Origin: an uncultured Sphingomonadaceae bacterium
GTDB lineage: Bacteria > Pseudomonadota > Alphaproteobacteria > Sphingomonadales > Sphingomonadaceae
Assembly (NCBI GenBank): GCA_964246315.1
Contig: CAXTPT010000011.1
Coordinates: forward strand, 1,228 to 65,227
DNA: 64,000 bases
Direction: 5' to 3'
Shown here: piece by piece, positions 29,522 through 56,863 of the stretch
How positions within the stretch are numbered: position 1 is the first letter of the stretch
Layout of the letters: the number at the start of each line of letters is the position of its first letter
Notes under the pieces: generated by a model
The model's input: only the letters and a program-made list of their open reading frames with translations
Database searches by the model: none
What the model was told of the DNA's origin: nothing
Translations under genes and position numbers: made by a program

Positions 29522-30172
29522 ATGGCAGACGACATCGAATGGCGCGTCAGCGACGGGCAGGTCGACTATGCCGAGGCGCTCGCCTGGATGGAGGCGCGCG
29601 CCTCGGCCATCGCGGCGGGCGAAGCGCGCGAGTGCATCTGGCTGCTCGAACATCCGCCGGTCTATACCGCCGGAACCAGCGCCGCGGCGGACGAGCTGCT
29701 CGATCCGCGCTTTCCGGTGGTCAGCGCGGGACGCGGCGGGCGCTATACCTATCACGGCCCCGGCCAGCGGATCGGCTATGTCATGCTCGACCTCGGTCGG
29801 CGCGGGCGCGATGTCCGCTGCTACGTCCACGCGCTGGAAGGCTGGGTGATTCAGGCGCTGCGAACCTTCGGCATCGCCGCGCACCGCGCCGTAGGACGCA
29901 TCGGCATCTGGACCGTCACGCCCGCCGGGGAGGCGAAGATCGGCGCCATCGGCGTACGCGTGCGGCGCTGGGTCACGCTGCATGGCTTTTCGGTCAATCT
30001 CGACCCCGACCTGTCACATTTCGGCGGCATCGTGCCGTGCGGAATTGCCGATCACGGGGTAACGAGCGCCGCGGCACTCGGCGTCGCGATCACACCGGCG
30101 CAGTTCGATGCCGCGCTGGCGGCCGCAATGCCGGAGTTTCTGGCTGCAACCGCGCTGCAACAATGTGCTTGA
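29522..30172 (+). CDS. lipB: Lipoyl(octanoyl) transferase
   Basis: [42 protein letters not shown]. Confidence 0.96.
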
Positions 30173-30262
30173 GCGGGGCGCAAAGAAAAGCTAATGCCCA
30201 CCTCGATTTGGGTATTAAGGCCAGAAGCCGCCCCGGATCCTTTATTCCTCAGGGAGCTTATA

Positions 30263-30529
30263 ATGCGCAAGATTGTCACTCTTTCGATGGTTGCCGCGGC
30301 GGCGCTGGCGGTTTCGGCCTGCAGCAAGACCGAGAACACCAACACGACCGAAGTCAATGTCACGGACGTCAATGCCACCGACGCGATGGCCGGCACGACC
30401 AACGACACGATGACCAACACCGACGCGTCGATGGGCGCCATGGACAACAGCTCGACCACCATGAATACGATGGCGGACAATGGTGCCATGACCTCGACCA
30501 CGACGATGAACAGCTCGAACGCGATGTAA
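30263..30529 (+). CDS. Small Asn/Thr/Met-rich lipoprotein
   Basis: AGGGAG SD, lipobox LAVSAC, low-complexity mature part. Confidence 0.8.
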   Translation: MRKIVTLSMVAAAALAVSACSKTENTNTTEVNVTDVNATDAMAGTTNDTMTNTDASMGAMDNSSTTMNTMADNGAMTSTTTMNSSNAM

Positions 30530-30560
30530 TCTCGCGTTCAGCTTCATTGCTGAACATGGA

Positions 30561-30594
30561 AAGGGCCGTCCGGGCGACCGGGCGGCCCTTTCTT
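30561..30594 (+). terminator. Intrinsic terminator
   Basis: AAGGGCCGTCCGG-GCGA-CCGGGCGGCCCTT followed by TCTT. Confidence 0.8.
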
Positions 30595-30687
30595 GTTGCG
30601 CCGAACCGTGGCGCGCGCGAGTCCGGCCGTGCTGGCCGGACCGGGTCAAAGCGCGTACGGTCCACGCAAGTTATTGGGGATGCTTCG

Positions 30688-31335
30688 TTGGTTCGTTTCC
30701 TTGCTGCCGTGATCATGCTTTCCGCCACCACCCCGGCATCGGCCCAGATCTTCTGGAAATCGCCCGATTATAGCGGCGCGCCGGTAACGTTGGAGGAACA
30801 AGGTATCGGTGTCGCGCTGCCTGGCGCCACCCCCGCCGAGCAGCGCGCCAATCTGGTGTGGCAACTGCGCGCCGGGCTGAACGTCGCCGCCTTGCAGTGC
30901 CAGCGTTTCCCGACGCTCCTGTCGAGGGAGGTGTATGCCGGTATCCTGACCAACCACAAGGACGAGCTGGCCAAGACCTACGCGACCCTCGCCAATTATT
31001 TCAAACGGGTCGAAAAGACGCCCAAGGCCGGCCAGCAGGCGCTCGATCGCTACGGCACCAAGACGTATATCGGCATGTCGACCGTGCAGGGCATTCTCGG
31101 GTTCTGCCAGACCTCGGCCTATGTCGGGCGTTCGGCGTTGTATGCGCCGCGCGGCAGCCTCAACATCGTGGCGATGGAGCGGCTGCGCGAGCTGCGCAAC
31201 AGCCTGTTGCCGGGGCGCGAACAGCAGTTCAATGTCGGTCACAACCCCCCGGTGCCGACATTTCCGAGCCTGGCCAAGCAGTGCTGGAACAAGGCCGACA
31301 ATTACGACCGGCGCTGCGGTCTTTACCCCTATTAA
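30688..31335 (+). CDS. Hypothetical secreted protein
   Basis: TTG start after GGGGA, signal peptide ending ASA, RAGLNVAALQC motif; start uncertain. Confidence 0.7.
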   Translation: MVRFLAAVIMLSATTPASAQIFWKSPDYSGAPVTLEEQGIGVALPGATPAEQRANLVWQLRAGLNVAALQCQRFPTLLSREVYAGILTNHKDELAKTYATLANYFKRVEKTPKAGQQALDRYGTKTYIGMSTVQGILGFCQTSAYVGRSALYAPRGSLNIVAMERLRELRNSLLPGREQQFNVGHNPPVPTFPSLAKQCWNKADNYDRRCGLYPY

Positions 31336-31964
31336 CGCAGCCCCAGCGCCTTGTGCGCTTGCAGCGTCAGGCGCCATTTGGGCCGGTTCATCGCCAGCGC
31401 GATCGCCGCGGCCCTTGCCGCCTCGACCTCCGCGCAGTCCATCGGCTGGACGAGGAAATGGCGGAAGTCGAGCCGTTCGAGCGCGTCGAGATCGATCCCG
31501 TCCTGCGGCCAGACGAGCTTGAGTTCGTCGCCAGCGGTTTGCGCGAGCGGATTGGCGCCTTTGGGACTGATGCACAGCCAGTCGATGCCCGGAGGCGCCA
31601 CGATCGTGCCGTTGCTTTCAACCCCGATCGAAAAGCCACGGGCATGGAGCGCATCGATCAGCGGCCCGTCGAGCTGGAGCATCGGCTCGCCGCCGGTGAT
31701 GACGGTGTAGCGGCCTTCTATCCCCCCACCCCATTCGCGCCCAACCGCATCGGCCAGCGCTTCGGCATCGGCGAACTTGCCACCGCCGCCGCCGTCGGTG
31801 CCGACGAAATCGGTGTCGCAGAACCGGCAGGCGGCCGTGACGCGGTCCTGTTCACGGCCGCTCCACAGATTGCAGCCGGCAAAGCGCATGAATACGGCCC
31901 GCCGGCCGGCTTGCACCCCTTCGCCCTGAAGCGTCAGGAACAGTTCCTTGACCGCGTAGGTCAC
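31332..31964 (-). CDS. queE: 7-carboxy-7-deazaguanine synthase
   Basis: [38 protein letters not shown]. Confidence 0.95.
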
Positions 31965-32638
31965 GCGAGCGCGGGGTCGCTCAGGCCCGCCTCGGCATAG
32001 CCCTTCGCGCGCAGCCGGCAGCTGTCGCAGACGCCGCAGGAGCGGCCATCCCGAGGATCGTAGCACGACCAGGTCTGGCCCGCATCGAGCCCGAGGCGCG
32101 CGGCTTCGCGAGCGATATCGGCCTTGGACATGTCGATCAACGGGGTGAGAACCTCGAACCCGCCCTCTTTCGTCGCGACGTCCGCCATGGCCTCGAACGC
32201 CGCGATGAATTCGGGACGGCAATCGGGATAGCCCGAATAATCGAGCGCATTCACCCCGATCGCCAGCCGGGTCGCGCCGACCGCCTCGGCCCAGCCGAGC
32301 GCGAGGCTGAGGAAGATGGTGTTGCGCGCGGGAACATAGGTCACCGGAATGCCGGGCATGACGCCACCATCCGGAACGGCGATCGCATCGTCGGTCAGCG
32401 CCGAACCGCCGAAGCGCGTCAGATCGAGCGGCATGACGACATGACGTTCGGCGCCAAGCATTGCTGCAACCCGCGCCGCGGCTTCGAGTTCGATACGGTG
32501 CCGCTGATTATAATCGATCGTCAGGGCGAAAATGCGGTAGCCCGCCGCACGCGCCAGGCCCCCCACAACCATCGAATCAAGGCCGCCGGAGACGAGCACG
32601 ACGGCGGCAGCGCCGGGATTTGCCTGCTTGAGTTTCAT
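31961..32638 (-). CDS. queC: 7-cyano-7-deazaguanine synthase
   Basis: [44 protein letters not shown]. Confidence 0.96.
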
Positions 32639-43963: not shown

Positions 43964-44086
43964 GCCGTCGCTTTGGAGTGCGGGGGGTGGAGGCGTCAAC
44001 CGTCCCGCAATGAAACGGAGCCGTGAAACGAGGCTTCACTTTCGGCGGTATGTGGCCTAATGGGCCTTAACTTTATGGGGGTACAT

Positions 44087-44746
44087 ATGCGCAATCTCGT
44101 GATTCTGGCCGCAGCGGCGCTCGCGGTCCCTGCCTCGGCGGCCAATTTGATCGTCAACGGCGGCTTCGAAGCGCCCGGCGCGCCGGCCGGCGGTTACAAT
44201 CAGTATTTCGGCGGTAGCAGCTTTACCGGCTGGAACGTCACCGGCGCCGATGTCCTGGTGCTTCACACCACCTATGCCGAATCGAACCTGACGTTCAACG
44301 CGTCGAGCGGCAGCAACGCGCTCGACATCACCGGGGCGGGCAACACCAGCCCGGCGGACGGCGTGTTCCAGACCGTCGCGACGACCGCGGGCAAGGTGTA
44401 CCGCCTGCGCTTCGATCTCGGCAACGCCGACGGCAGCGGCAATGGCAGCTACGTCCTGCCCAGCTCGATCGGCGTGTCGATCAACGGTGGGGCGGTGCAG
44501 AATTTCACCAATGCCGCGACGACCACCTTCGGCGTGAATTGGGCCGCCCAGCAGCTGACCTTCGTCGGCACGGGTTCGGACACCATCGCCTTCACCAACA
44601 CGACGCCTTTGGGCGATAATTATGCCGGCCTCGACAATGTGTCGCTGTCGGTGCCCGAACCGGCCCAGTGGGCGCTGCTGCTCGGGGGCTTCGGCCTAAT
44701 CGGCGGCGCGATGCGTCGCCGCCGTTCGAACGTCGTTTACGCTTAA
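44087..44746 (+). CDS. PEPxxWA-CTERM sorting-domain protein (DUF642-like beta-sandwich)
   Basis: Signal peptide, NLIVNGGFE, LDNVS, VPEPAQWALLLGGFGLIGGAMRRRR. Confidence 0.92.
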   Translation: MRNLVILAAAALAVPASAANLIVNGGFEAPGAPAGGYNQYFGGSSFTGWNVTGADVLVLHTTYAESNLTFNASSGSNALDITGAGNTSPADGVFQTVATTAGKVYRLRFDLGNADGSGNGSYVLPSSIGVSINGGAVQNFTNAATTTFGVNWAAQQLTFVGTGSDTIAFTNTTPLGDNYAGLDNVSLSVPEPAQWALLLGGFGLIGGAMRRRRSNVVYA

Positions 44747-52155: not shown

Positions 52156-52889
52156 CGCGCTTCCGGCTGACCATCGAATATGACGGGCGCCCGTTCATGG
52201 GCTGGCAGCGGCAGGATCACGGTCCGAGCGTGCAGGCCAGCCTCGAGCGCGCGATCCTGAGCACGCTCAGTGAGGAAGCCACGGTCCACGCCGCGGGCCG
52301 CACCGACGCCGGCGTCCACGCCCGTGCGATGGTCGCGCATGTCGATATACAGCGGACGATTACCGCCGAACGCCTGACGGGCGCGCTCAACGCCGGGGTG
52401 CGGCCCGATCCGGTCAGCGTGATCGCTTGCAGCGAGATCGATCACGAATTTCACGCGCGTTTTTCGTGTGTTGCGCGGCACTATGAATATATCATGGTCA
52501 ATCGCCGCAGCCCGCTGGCACTCGATATAGGGCTGGCGTGGCGCGTCTGGCCCGAACTCGATGCCGCCGCGATGCACGAGGCGGCCCAGCGCCTCGTCGG
52601 CCTTCACGACTTCACGACCTTCCGCTCGGCCCACTGCCAGGCTGAATCGCCCGTCCGGACGCTCGACCGGCTCGAGGTCACGCGCGATGGAGAGCGCATC
52701 CTGATTCACGCTTCGGCGCGCAGCTTCCTTCATCATCAGGTACGCTCGATGACCGGCTGCCTGGCGCTGGTCGGCGAAGGCAAATGGACCGCCGACGACC
52801 TCGGGGCCGCGCTGATGGCGAAAGAACGCGCGGCGCTCGGCTTCAACGCCCCGCCCGACGGGCTCTACTTCATCGGCGCGGACTACTGA
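52152..52889 (+). CDS. truA: tRNA pseudouridine(38-40) synthase
   Basis: [35 protein letters not shown]. Confidence 0.96.
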
Positions 52890-54070
52890 CCGATCAGGAT
52901 TTCGCGCGCGGGGCCGTGGCCGAGGAACGCTGCCGGGCTGGCGGAGGCGCCATAGGCTCCGGCCATAAAGATGGCGATGACGTCGCCCACCTCGGCGCGC
53001 GGCAAGTCCACCTGATTGGCGAGCAGATCGAGCGGAGTGCACAGGCAGCCGACGACACTGACGATCTCGCGCGGCCCCTGCCCGCCGACCACCGCTACCG
53101 GATAGTTCCGCCGCACCACCGTCCCGAAATTGCCGCTGGCGGCCAGTTGGTGATGCAGGCCCCCATCGACGACGAGAAAGGTTTCGCCGCGGCTTTGCTT
53201 CCGGTCGATGACCTGCGTGAGGTAGACCCCCGCCTCGCTGACCAGCCAGCGGCCGAGTTCGATGGCGAAGCGGCTTTCGCGCACGATCGGCGCCCGTCCG
53301 GCAAGGGATCGAGCAAGGCGCGCGCCGATCAGCGGAACATCGAGTTCGCGGTCGCCCGCGAAATAAGGCACGCCGAAGCCGCCGCCGAGGTTGACCAGCG
53401 GCGGCGGCGCGCCCGCCGCCTCGCCGATCTCCGCCGCAAGCGCGAGCGTGGCGGCCTGGGTGTCGGCGATCGCCTCGGCGTCGAGGCTTTGACTGCCGGT
53501 GAAGATATGCAGCCCCTGCCAGTCGGCGCCCGCGTCGATCAGCCGCCGCACCAACGCCGGCACGCGCTCGGCATCGACACCGAAGGGCGACGCGAAGCCA
53601 CCCATCTTCATCCCCGAGCCCTTGAGCGCGAAGCTCGGGTTCACCCGCACTGCCAATCTTGGCGCGGCGCCAAGACGTGCGGCGATCGCCAGCGCGCGAT
53701 CGGCCTCGCTTTCGCTTTCGAGGTTGAGCGTGACGCCGGCCTCAATCGCCTGTTCCAGTTCGGCGTCGGTCTTGCCCGGTCCAGCAAAGCTGATGTGCGT
53801 CGCTCCCGCCGTCACGGCCATCGCCAATTCGCCGCCCGATGCTACATCGATCCCGTCGACCATCGGCACTATTGCGGCCAGCAAAGGCGCGAACGGATTG
53901 GCCTTCATCGCATAATGAATGGAAACACCGTCGGGCAACGCATTGCGAAGCCTGGCGATCTTCTCGGCCACCAGGCGCAGATCGTAAACGAACGCCGGTG
54001 TCTGTCCGGGCGACAGGTCATTCAACCGTTCGGCCGTCCACCATGCGGGAATGGCGCCATGCGGCTTCAC
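52883..54070 (-). CDS. PLP-dependent decarboxylase, exosortase A system-associated type (DAP-decarboxylase fold)
   Basis: HYAMKANP (PLP Lys), [35 protein letters not shown]. Confidence 0.88.
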
Positions 54071-55542
54071 GCCCCCGCCCTCACCGCAACGCGATCGAGC
54101 TTGCCATTGGCATTGCGCGGCAGGGTCTGGCGGCGGTCGATCATGCCAGGCACCATATAGGACGGCAACTCGCGCCTGAGATGGGCAAGCAGCGCCGCGT
54201 CGTCGCCCGCGCCGCTCACCGCCAGGCGGATCAGCGCCCCAGCCGCGTCATCGGGCACGCCCCAGGCCACGGCCTCGTCCGCCGCGCCGCTGGCAAGGGC
54301 GGCCGCTTCGACCTCGAAAGGGCTGACGCGCTGTCCCATCGTCTTGATCATCTCGTCGTCGCGGCCCACGAAGAAGAAGCGGCCTTCGCTGTCACGGCGG
54401 ACGGTGTCGCCCGACCACGCCGCCATGCCGCCAAGTCTGGACCAGGGCGGCGCCGGACGGAAGCGCGCTGCGGTGCGCTCCGCGTCTTGCCAATAGCCCT
54501 GGGCGACGAGCGGACCCGCGTGAACCAGTTCGCCGGGCTCGCCCGGCGCGGCCTCGCTGCCATCAGGGCGGACGGCCATCACCTCGGCAAAGGGAATTTG
54601 CCGGCCCATCGAGGTTGGATAGGCCGTGACTTCTGCCGGATCGAGATAGGTTGAGCGGAACGCCTCGGTCAGGCCGTACATCGGAACGATGCCGGCGTTG
54701 GGAAAGCATGTCCGCATCCGCTCGATCAGCGCGGGCGTCAGCGCACCTCCCGTATTGGCGACGCGGCGGAGGCTCGCCCCGGCTTCTCCCCAATCAAGCG
54801 CGAGGAGTTGCGTCCATAGCGGCGGAACGGCGGTGAGCGAGGTGATTTTAAGGCGTTGCACCGCCTTCATGACGTCACGCGGCAGCAAATAGTCGAGCGG
54901 CACCGCGGTCGCCCCCGCGCGCCAGGTCGAAAACAGCTGGCTTTGTCCCGCATCAAAGCCGAGCGGCAGCACCGCCAGAACGCGCTCTTCGGGCGCGACC
55001 TGGAGATAATGCGCGACGCTGACCGCGCCGAGCCACAAATTGGCGTGGCTGAGCATCACCCCCTTCGGCCGCCCGGTGGAACCCGAGGTATACATCAGCG
55101 CCACGAGCCCGTCTGGATCGGCAGCGGATGGCGGCAATGGTTCGCCCTGCCCCGCTTTGGCCACGACCCGACAGTCGGCAGGCACATCGCCACGGTCGAA
55201 CGTCGCCGCACGGCTTTCGGCAGTGAGCAGCAGCCCCGCTCCACTATCCGCCAGGATATGCGCCACCTGTGCCCGCTTAAGCATCGGATTGACCGGCACA
55301 TGCACCAAGCCCGCACGCGCCGCGGCAAGCGGCATCAGGCAGGCCTCGACCGTCTTGGGCAGCCAGGTCGCGACGCGCGAACCAGCTGCGAATCCGAACG
55401 ATGCGAGCCATCCGGCCAGCTCGGCCACGCGCTGCTCCGCCTCGGCATAGTGGATCGCCCCGTCCGCGGTGAGCAGCGCGTCGCCGGTACCAAAGCTGAG
55501 CAGATGGTCGAGCGGACGCGGCACGGGATCGAGCGGGACCAT
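54067..55542 (-). CDS. AMP-forming acyl-CoA ligase, exosortase A system-associated type
   Basis: YTSGSTGRPKGV, MYGLTEAFRSTYL, GELVH.GPLVA.GYW, FVGR.D; overlaps the decarboxylase. Confidence 0.88.
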   Translation of the reverse strand: MVPLDPVPRPLDHLLSFGTGDALLTADGAIHYAEAEQRVAELAGWLASFGFAAGSRVATWLPKTVEACLMPLAAARAGLVHVPVNPMLKRAQVAHILADSGAGLLLTAESRAATFDRGDVPADCRVVAKAGQGEPLPPSAADPDGLVALMYTSGSTGRPKGVMLSHANLWLGAVSVAHYLQVAPEERVLAVLPLGFDAGQSQLFSTWRAGATAVPLDYLLPRDVMKAVQRLKITSLTAVPPLWTQLLALDWGEAGASLRRVANTGGALTPALIERMRTCFPNAGIVPMYGLTEAFRSTYLDPAEVTAYPTSMGRQIPFAEVMAVRPDGSEAAPGEPGELVHAGPLVAQGYWQDAERTAARFRPAPPWSRLGGMAAWSGDTVRRDSEGRFFFVGRDDEMIKTMGQRVSPFEVEAAALASGAADEAVAWGVPDDAAGALIRLAVSGAGDDAALLAHLRRELPSYMVPGMIDRRQTLPRNANGKLDRVAVRAGA

Positions 55543-55610
55543 GCGCGCTCCCCTAGCGGCTCCCCTCTCCGCTTGCGACCCCGCACCCTCGCGGCTAGTC
55601 GCATTACCGC

Positions 55611-55865
55611 ATGGGGGCCGCTGACCAGATCGTTCGCGAAACGCTTCGCGATAGCCTGTCGCTCGATCAGGCGCGCGTCGACGCGATGGGCCGGGACACC
55701 CCGTTGTTCGGCGCGCTGCCCGAGCTGGATTCGATGGCGGTAGCGACGCTGCTGACCGAACTCGAGGATCGCCTCGGCACGATTATCGACGATGACGAGG
55801 TCGATGCCGAGATGCTCGAGACATTTGGGGCGTTGGTGGCGTTCGCCGAGAAGAAGCTGGCCTAG
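55611..55865 (+). CDS. Acyl/peptidyl carrier protein
   Basis: 84 aa, acidic, LPELDSMAV phosphopantetheine Ser motif; divergent from the ligase. Confidence 0.9.
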   Translation: MGAADQIVRETLRDSLSLDQARVDAMGRDTPLFGALPELDSMAVATLLTELEDRLGTIIDDDEVDAEMLETFGALVAFAEKKLA

Positions 55866-56863
55866 TCGCCGGTTATTTTCGGCGAGCCGAGATCGCCTTG
55901 CCCAACGCTCGCACCAGCCATTTCCAGCATGCGGTCCAAACTCTTCTTCGCCCGGACGCGCAGACCTTCCTCGATCTCGATCCGCGGTTCCAGGTCGCGT
56001 AGCGCGATGTAGAGTTTCTCCATCGTGTTGAGCGCCATATAGGGACAGATATTGCAGTTGCAGTTGCCGTCAGCCCCCGGCGCGCCGATGAAGTTTTTGT
56101 GCGGCAGCGCCTTGGTCATCTGATGGATGATGTGCGGTTCGGTGGCGACGATCAGCGTGTCACCGGGCAGCGCCTTGGCGTAGTCGAGGATGCCGCTGGT
56201 CGAACCGACATAATCGGCATGATCGAGGATGTGCGCCGGGCATTCGGGATGCGCCGCGACGGGCGCGCCGGGATGTTGCGCCTTGAGCTTGATCAGTTCG
56301 GTTTCCGAAAACGCTTCGTGGACGATGCACACGCCCGGCCACAGCAGCATGTCGCGCCCGGTCTTGCGCTTGAGATAGCCGCCGAGATGCTTGTCGGGGC
56401 CGAAGATAATTTTTTGGCTTGGCGAGATTTGGGACAGGATTTTCTCGGCGGACGAGCTGGTGACGATGATATCGCTCAGCCCTTTCACCTCCGCCGAACA
56501 ATTGATGTAGGTCAGTGCGATGTGATCGGGATGTTCGGCGCGGAACTTGGCGAAGACCTCGGGCGGGCAGGAATCCTCGAGGCTGCAACCGGCATCCATA
56601 TCCGGCAGTACGACGATCTTGTCGGGCGACAGGATTTTTGCCGTCTCCGCCATGAAACGCACGCCACAGAACGCTATGACGTCCGCGTCGGTCGCCTGCG
56701 CCTTGCGGCTCAAGTCGAGCGAGTCGCCGACGAAATCGGCAATGTCCTGCAATTCGGGCCGCTGGTAATAATGCGCGAGGATCACCGCGTTGCGCTCCTT
56801 GCGGAGGCGATCGATCTCGGCGCGAAGGTCAAGGCCCTGCAGGCTGCCCGGCTGATAGCTCAT
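55862..56863 (-). CDS. nadA: Quinolinate synthase
   Basis: ILAHYYQ, GDSL.L, FCGV.FMAETAK, AGCSL, TY.N.SA, C.VH, AHPEC, C.CN.CPYM. Confidence 0.96.
   Translation of the reverse strand: MSYQPGSLQGLDLRAEIDRLRKERNAVILAHYYQRPELQDIADFVGDSLDLSRKAQATDADVIAFCGVRFMAETAKILSPDKIVVLPDMDAGCSLEDSCPPEVFAKFRAEHPDHIALTYINCSAEVKGLSDIIVTSSSAEKILSQISPSQKIIFGPDKHLGGYLKRKTGRDMLLWPGVCIVHEAFSETELIKLKAQHPGAPVAAHPECPAHILDHADYVGSTSGILDYAKALPGDTLIVATEPHIIHQMTKALPHKNFIGAPGADGNCNCNICPYMALNTMEKLYIALRDLEPRIEIEEGLRVRAKKSLDRMLEMAGASVGQGDLGSPKITGD

Follow-up and report, generated by a model that had tools for sequence, protein, structure and literature searches.

A three-gene, carrier-bound beta-alanine module proposed to stand in for PanD in a Sphingomonas genome

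The stretch of DNA analysed here (64,000 nucleotides, hereafter the window) belongs to contig CAXTPT010000011.1 of an uncultured Sphingomonadaceae bacterium (GenBank assembly GCA_964246315.1), a Sphingomonas with a genome of 2.56 Mb and 65% GC. It exhibits three neighbouring genes encoding a stand-alone adenylating enzyme (the ligase), a pyridoxal phosphate (PLP) dependent decarboxylase and a small carrier protein (Table 1). We propose, with a probability of roughly 0.55, that these genes form a self-sufficient module making beta-alanine in carrier-bound form, and that the module replaces the missing aspartate decarboxylase PanD in the synthesis of pantothenate and coenzyme A (CoA) in this organism. 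The ligase would adenylate the beta-carboxyl group of L-aspartate and thioesterify it onto the phosphopantetheine arm of the carrier. The decarboxylase, which resembles BtrK of butirosin biosynthesis, would then remove the free alpha-carboxyl group, leaving beta-alanyl-S-carrier. In most relatives a GNAT (FemAB/CelD-like) transferase and hydrolases would pass this unit on inside a polysaccharide locus of exosortase A (XrtA). With these partners and the XrtA locus deleted here, the module would have been kept as the beta-alanine supply for pantothenate and CoA, in place of PanD. An unlinked thioesterase, or else hydrolysis, would set beta-alanine free for use by PanC.

Distribution of the module and of PanD

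Our sample comprises 201 Sphingomonadaceae genomes, in which the decarboxylase was identified 178 times, XrtA 136 times, the exosortase XrtV 64 times and the GNAT transferase 116 times. PanD is absent from all 178 decarboxylase-positive genomes and present in seven of the 23 decarboxylase-negative ones. Those seven genomes span four genera; one of them is Sphingomonas naphthae (G020). Beyond this family, none of 14 other alphaproteobacteria with the decarboxylase exhibits PanD. Among other Pseudomonadota, PanD was found in one of nine genomes with an above-cut-off decarboxylase match, versus six of eight non-alphaproteobacterial genomes with only sub-threshold relatives. One non-alphaproteobacterial family (f225) was sampled genus by genus, and gave PanD in 0/8 decarboxylase-positive versus 4/5 decarboxylase-negative genomes (Fisher p = 0.007, a hand calculation uncorrected for relatedness). 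Overall, the two enzymes occur together in a single genome out of 205 that carry the decarboxylase.

PanD is a pyruvoyl-dependent aspartate 1-decarboxylase (TIGR00223), and the net reaction proposed for the module would be the same, L-aspartate to beta-alanine and CO2. PanD differs from the module in having an unrelated fold and cofactor, in acting on the free substrate, and in using neither ATP nor a carrier. We infer that the likeness between the two is an analogy of function only.

The distribution of PanC, counted in the Sphingomonadaceae only, extends this picture. PanC is present in 193 of the 201 genomes, the host genome included. Among genomes of at least 95% completeness, four are without PanC, one of them a sponge-associated Croceibacterium, and each of these four also lacks the decarboxylase and PanD. 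Zymomonas mobilis ATCC 10988 (G032) has PanC and lacks the decarboxylase and PanD; the pantothenate requirement of Z. mobilis stems solely from its inability to make beta-alanine, and is relieved by beta-alanine or by the Escherichia coli PanD (bioRxiv 10.1101/144709). Genomes without the module possess PanD, have also lost PanC, or belong to an auxotroph (Zymomonas), except for seven genomes that fit none of these descriptions.

In a published survey that includes approximately 20 Sphingomonadales, PanD is recorded for none of these and beta-ureidopropionase is missing from most (PMC7142369, Table A2). A preprint on Sphingomonas koreensis (Price et al.) states only that vitamin pathways appear essential. 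Within the literature searched, the coverage of which was incomplete, nothing relevant was found that links exosortase-associated genes to beta-alanine or pantothenate. The stand-alone state of the module and its complementarity with PanD appear to be new, in contrast to the chemistry of the cassette, which rests on known precedents discussed below.

To the wider proposition we give an even chance: that the module is a previously unrecognised primary-metabolic route to beta-alanine, replacing PanD in pantothenate and CoA synthesis across most of the Sphingomonadaceae as well as in further Pseudomonadota devoid of PanD, and that its position in XrtA loci reflects a second use. There, the GNAT transferase and the hydrolases probably pass this same beta-alanyl-carrier on to the polysaccharide machinery as well. 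For many PanD-less Proteobacteria, the origin of beta-alanine has long been a missing piece of the CoA pathway. If the proposition is true, two widespread protein families that owe their names to genomic association alone would acquire a function, metabolic reconstructions and auxotrophy predictions would improve, and the beta-alanine auxotrophy of Zymomonas would find an evolutionary explanation. Pantothenate auxotrophy would be predicted for organisms whose genomes lack the module, PanD and PanC, the sponge-associated Croceibacterium being an example. Core metabolism would then be making use of thiotemplate chemistry, which is otherwise typical of antibiotic pathways. Such a route would also exhibit an unusual circularity, because the prosthetic group of the carrier is itself made from CoA.

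Several observations weigh against a role of the module in pantothenate synthesis. Seven genomes (G028, G132, G078, G172, G146, G177 and G182) have PanC and lack both the decarboxylase and PanD; therefore at least one other route to, or source of, beta-alanine exists. One genome (G541) carries both the decarboxylase and PanD. No gene for the release of free beta-alanine is linked to the module, and none of the loci examined has a pan or coa gene next to it (panB and panC were looked for). Transaminases or the breakdown of pyrimidines or polyamines could also provide beta-alanine in the host genome. The raw counts given above overstate the association, because related genomes are not independent samples. 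Finally, in the substrate pocket of the ligase, the residue beside the conserved aspartate is an alanine in this clade, and not the bulky tyrosine or phenylalanine of most relatives and of the beta-amino-acid enzyme VinN.

The surroundings of panD and the copy number of the decarboxylase were also recorded. In three of the four PanD-positive genera (G020, G037 and G058), panD and panC are no more than about 1-2 kb apart, and the PanC scores of these three genomes are among the highest in the family; in G037 a panB-like gene adjoins panC. This hints at the acquisition of a pan gene block. In the fourth genus (G003), panD is found in a different neighbourhood. Some large genomes exhibit two copies of the TIGR03099 decarboxylase (G070 and G165, of genus g70 and 6.4-6.6 Mb in size, as well as G821, G847 and G868).

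Exosortase context and reduction of the locus

The protein families of the ligase and the decarboxylase (TIGR03098 and TIGR03099) are NCBIfam hypothetical equivalogs described as "exosortase A system-associated". Both proteins pass the family cut-offs, and their relatives sit in XrtA loci. The initial annotation connected the module with an exosortase surface system, and suggested locating xrtA and its associated hydrolases. Neither turned up in the host genome. Its sole exosortase is XrtV (NF035943, 330 bits), in an EpsL/E/F/G-type locus on another contig; XrtA was not found, the XrtA model scoring 131 bits versus a cut-off of 208. No match above cut-off was obtained in the host genome for hydrolase 1 (TIGR03100), hydrolase 2 (TIGR03101) or the GNAT/FemAB-like transferase. 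A tblastn search of the genome with the GNAT and hydrolase sequences of relatives returned nothing, and no homologues of the XrtA-locus genes of two other genomes (G019, G156) were found in it.

A comparison with genomes of the same genus reveals what happened at this site. In both same-genus genomes, genes for a hydrolase, the acyl carrier protein (ACP) and the GNAT transferase are followed by a series running from the ligase and decarboxylase through export, chain-length, outer-membrane, ATPase and deacetylase genes, and further on to XrtA and an AsnB-like gene, and then by truA-fmt. At the same site, between nadA and truA, the host genome exhibits only the ACP and the ligase-decarboxylase pair before truA-fmt. 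Three segments are missing relative to these relatives, and only the three module genes are left. The nearest named relative, S. antarctica (ligase 82% identical), has an identical reduced arrangement from which the GNAT gene is also gone. The ratios of nonsynonymous to synonymous substitution rates (dN/dS) between the two genomes are 0.058 (carrier), 0.138 (ligase) and 0.206 (decarboxylase), in the same range as for nadA, truA, fmt and rmuC (0.055-0.217). The XrtA locus, the GNAT transferase and the hydrolases have been deleted here, while the three genes stay under purifying selection.

Could the module still serve the cell surface only? On this alternative, beta-alanyl-carrier (or a related aminoacyl-carrier) would be a donor for the decoration of a surface polymer, a lipid or a PEP-CTERM protein, an unlinked transferase would act in this organism, for example together with the XrtV locus, and the beta-alanine of CoA would come from another route. 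That the module is embedded in an XrtA polysaccharide locus in most genomes, with the GNAT transferase and hydrolases as its neighbours, is what such a donor would lead us to expect, and so is the presence of the decarboxylase in 134 of the 136 XrtA-positive Sphingomonadaceae. The host genome does possess XrtV and 23 PEP-CTERM hits. Moreover, PanD-less organisms could need a carrier-bound route merely for want of a free beta-alanine pool. Yet ten Sphingomonadaceae genomes have XrtV with neither XrtA nor the decarboxylase, and 44 of the 178 decarboxylase-positive genomes lack XrtA, 40 of these 44 also lacking the GNAT transferase. Five complete decarboxylase-positive genomes are devoid of exosortases of every type as well as of PEP-CTERM domains. 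In all three exosortase-free genomes whose locus was examined the three genes are kept together, usually next to truA-fmt or other housekeeping genes; in G046 the neighbours are the unrelated housekeeping genes thiE, trxB, zapE and sdhB. A surface donor would also leave the joint loss of PanC and the decarboxylase unexplained, and would sit uneasily with three genes that outlast the GNAT transferase, the hydrolases and the XrtA locus under purifying selection. We consider this alternative unlikely, though by no means negligible. Since this genome and 43 other sampled Sphingomonadaceae lack XrtA, the association expressed in the family names is not a requirement, and an exosortase destination for the module is not supported in this genome.

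The reduced arrangement was also seen in Sphingomonas aurea, S. metalli, Croceicoccus and Pontixanthobacter. The carrier gene adjoins the ligase-decarboxylase pair in every genome examined, and the carrier is 55-71% identical to those of other genomes with only the three genes.

Other features of these loci deserve mention. In an XrtA-less genome (G039), the GNAT gene beside the module (C43:7881-8783) contains an in-frame TAG and the decarboxylase is intact, which looks like a snapshot of partner genes decaying first. An asparagine-synthase-like gene for 607-625 residues occurs between the decarboxylase or XrtA and truA (G133, L044:5980-7803; G019, 30157-32034), and persists in G133 despite the absence of an exosortase there. 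In the host genome, the XrtV polysaccharide locus (EpsL/E/F/G-like genes, XrtV, a type V EpsI and WcaJ; contig C14:11633-20405) runs straight into genes for an ACP and a serine palmitoyltransferase, the first genes of sphingolipid synthesis, and two PEP-CTERM genes follow on that contig after another 10-18 kb. The genes for 491, 80 and 421 residues next to XrtV were considered as a second copy of the module and rejected, being WcaJ and the ACP and serine palmitoyltransferase of sphingolipid synthesis.

Predicted chemistry of the module

The best solved relative of the decarboxylase is BtrK (2J66/7RU7), with 227 bits (E-value = 3e-66) and an alignment of residues 23-392 that covers the full length. 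The next best is an SbnH-like structure (6knh, 141 bits), and the diaminopimelate (DAP) decarboxylases score about 130 bits or less. The DAP-binding segment seen in the LysA of the host genome ("NDLARPALY", with the R-P-x-x-Y motif) is absent, "HH" and a five-residue gap standing in its place. BtrK, from the butirosin pathway of Bacillus circulans, shares the "GGxHH" segment with the decarboxylase, and the DAP-binding motif is lost in both. BtrK is known to decarboxylate glutamate tethered to the carrier BtrI (PMC7857480). These similarities place our protein among BtrK/AfcP-like enzymes, and it is predicted to strip the alpha-carboxyl group from carrier-bound aspartate.

The best solved relatives of the ligase are, by a wide margin, adenylation (A) domains of nonribosomal peptide synthetases. 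Its pocket segment is matched best, and without gaps, by VinN ("TEAFRS" in the ligase, "TECKRI" in VinN), and the canonical alpha-amino-acid A domain 8glc aligns with one inserted residue after "TEA". A beta13-beta14 loop shortened by one residue is the defining mark of the beta-amino-acid enzymes (PMC11253843). The ligase exhibits this short loop, together with an arginine at VinN position 331, the aspartate that binds the amino group (VinN D230, GrsA D235; in "GFDAGQS") and the catalytic lysine (GrsA K517; in "NGKLDR"), the features of a VinN/AfcQ-type enzyme. D235, M322, F330, R331 and K517 are invariant among 157 ligase relatives. The VinN residues K330, F231 and S299 are replaced by F, A and T in this ligase (F, Y and S in most family members), and the match to VinN is therefore partial. 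From its pocket, the ligase is predicted to load L-aspartate by the beta-carboxyl group onto the carrier protein. Taken with the BtrK-like decarboxylase, the VinN/AfcQ-like pocket therefore makes L-aspartate to beta-aspartyl-S-carrier to beta-alanyl-S-carrier the most likely reaction. As an aside, the pocket code exists in two co-varying forms: "DYNATSMFRK" in the majority, and "DASAATMFRK" in the S. antarctica-like clade and, independently, in other alphaproteobacterial families. The substitution of Y236 by A is accompanied by those of T299 by A and S301 by T, and may reflect a repacking of the pocket or a shift of substrate.

This reaction type has described precedents. Close in composition is the set AfcQ, AfcK and AfcP of the AFC-BC11 lipopeptide of the Burkholderia cepacia complex, consisting, like the module, of a ligase of the ANL superfamily (acyl-CoA synthetases, nonribosomal peptide synthetase A domains and luciferases), a carrier and a PLP decarboxylase. 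In vitro, beta-alanyl-S-carrier is formed by AfcQ and AfcP on the carrier AfcK; in the pathway, repeated use of the unit gives (beta-Ala)3, and many further enzymes of the cluster take part in its acylation and incorporation into the antifungal compound (PMC12186527). Unlike that cluster, the module has no linked downstream enzyme, has housekeeping genes for neighbours and is near-universal in one bacterial family. AfcP and AfcQ are likened to it here by reaction and pocket. In the vicenistatin (VinN/VinL) and fluvirucin (FlvN/FlvL) systems, an ANL enzyme likewise loads 3-methylaspartate or aspartate, as a beta-amino acid, onto a stand-alone carrier, and VinN shares D230, R331 and the short loop with our ligase. 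VinO and FlvO are PLP decarboxylases acting on the tethered substrate. Unlike the module, these systems belong to polyketide pathways of actinomycetes, in which additional protecting and transfer enzymes take part. The initial annotation had called the chemistry uncharacterised, which holds for this protein family but not for the reaction type (VinN/L/O, FlvN/L/O and AfcQ/K/P). Its idea of a dicarboxylic amino acid loaded on the ACP and decarboxylated there agrees with the closeness to BtrK and the lack of the DAP segment, and its choice between glutamate and aspartate is narrowed to aspartate by the VinN/AfcQ-like pocket.

A substrate other than aspartate has to be weighed. Were glutamate used as in butirosin, it would be loaded by its gamma-carboxyl group and gamma-aminobutyryl-S-carrier would result. 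BtrK, to which the decarboxylase is closest among solved proteins, has precisely such a substrate, gamma-glutamyl-BtrI (PMC7857480), and the pocket residues of this clade ("DASAATMFRK") are smaller than those of the majority. The pocket as a whole nevertheless favours aspartate to beta-alanine over glutamate to gamma-aminobutyrate (GABA), the VinN/AfcQ loop length and Arg331 fitting the beta-amino-acid mode of binding. The BtrI/BtrJ/BtrK system differs not only in its substrate, glutamate, and its product, GABA, but also in that the product goes on to be lengthened and attached to an aminoglycoside. Its ligase BtrJ is an ATP-grasp enzyme and not an ANL enzyme, differing in kind from the ligase of the module. 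Furthermore, the enzyme that anticorrelates with the module, PanD, is specific for beta-alanine, and cyclisation would be expected of a free GABA thioester. We regard glutamate as an improbable substrate.

It is very improbable that the decarboxylase is a paralogue of LysA or of ornithine decarboxylase acting on a free amino acid, with an ordinary acyl-CoA synthetase and an unrelated carrier beside it. The database names ("acyl-CoA ligase", DAP-decarboxylase-like) and a match of the decarboxylase to TIGR01048 (LysA) would suggest such an assignment, but this match, at 206 bits, is below the cut-off of 297.9, the DAP-binding segment is deleted, and a separate LysA-like gene is present on contig C12 of the host genome. 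By these sequence features, the decarboxylase is not a lysine-pathway enzyme. The ligase is closer to amino-acid adenylation domains (260.0 bits) than to fatty-acyl-CoA ligases (236.6 bits), A domains lead its solved-structure search and Asp235 is kept; the carrier, with its low dN/dS (0.058), always adjoins the pair in the genomes examined. A search for fused forms found ligase-decarboxylase fusion proteins elsewhere, and none between module proteins and pantothenate enzymes.

Least probable of all is a functionless remnant of a decayed XrtA locus, an idea that could appeal to the three neighbouring deletions of the usual partners and to the stop codon in the G039 GNAT gene as proof that partner decay occurs, but that conflicts with the intact reading frames and catalytic residues, with the same arrangement in S. 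antarctica at dN/dS values (0.06-0.21) like those of the housekeeping neighbours, and with the recurrence of three-gene-only arrangements in many genera.

Gene organisation

Everything that the initial annotation had observed at the locus was confirmed (Table 1). The ligase and decarboxylase genes are coupled, the stop of the former overlapping the start of the latter by the four bases GTGA (54067-54070). The carrier gene is divergent from them and retains its serine ("ELDSMA"). No transferase or hydrolase was found among the flanking genes, which are fmt-truA on the decarboxylase side and nadA on the carrier side, and the PEP-CTERM gene is indeed located about 8 kb away. The PLP lysine of the decarboxylase sits in "HYAMKANP", and the core motifs of the ligase are intact, including the A10 lysine in "NGKLDR". 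The TIGR03098 match of the ligase is split into two stretches and barely exceeds the cut-off, because the protein falls short of the model by about 20 residues at the N-terminus.

Table 1. Features of the module locus, in positions of the window
Feature	Position	Strand	Description
Fold-type III PLP decarboxylase	52883-54070	-	395 aa; TIGR03099 529.5 bits (cut-off 478.45); PF02784 and PF00278
Stand-alone adenylating enzyme (ligase)	54067-55542	-	491 aa; TIGR03098 594.9 bits (cut-off 592.35); PF00501 and PF13193
Divergent intergenic region between ligase and carrier genes	55543-55610	.	68 bp; site occupied by the GNAT transferase gene in relatives
Carrier protein	55611-55865	+	84 aa; PF00550 26.2 bits (gathering threshold 20.8); Ser41 in "LPELDSMAVA"
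PEP-CTERM protein	44060-44746	+	8.1 kb from the module

A promoter and terminator scan of positions 52600-56100 gave nothing useful, no sigma-70-like promoter being detected. The carrier gene (+) and nadA (-) are convergent, with stop codons overlapping by 4 bp at 55862-55865, and the same junction is found in S. antarctica.

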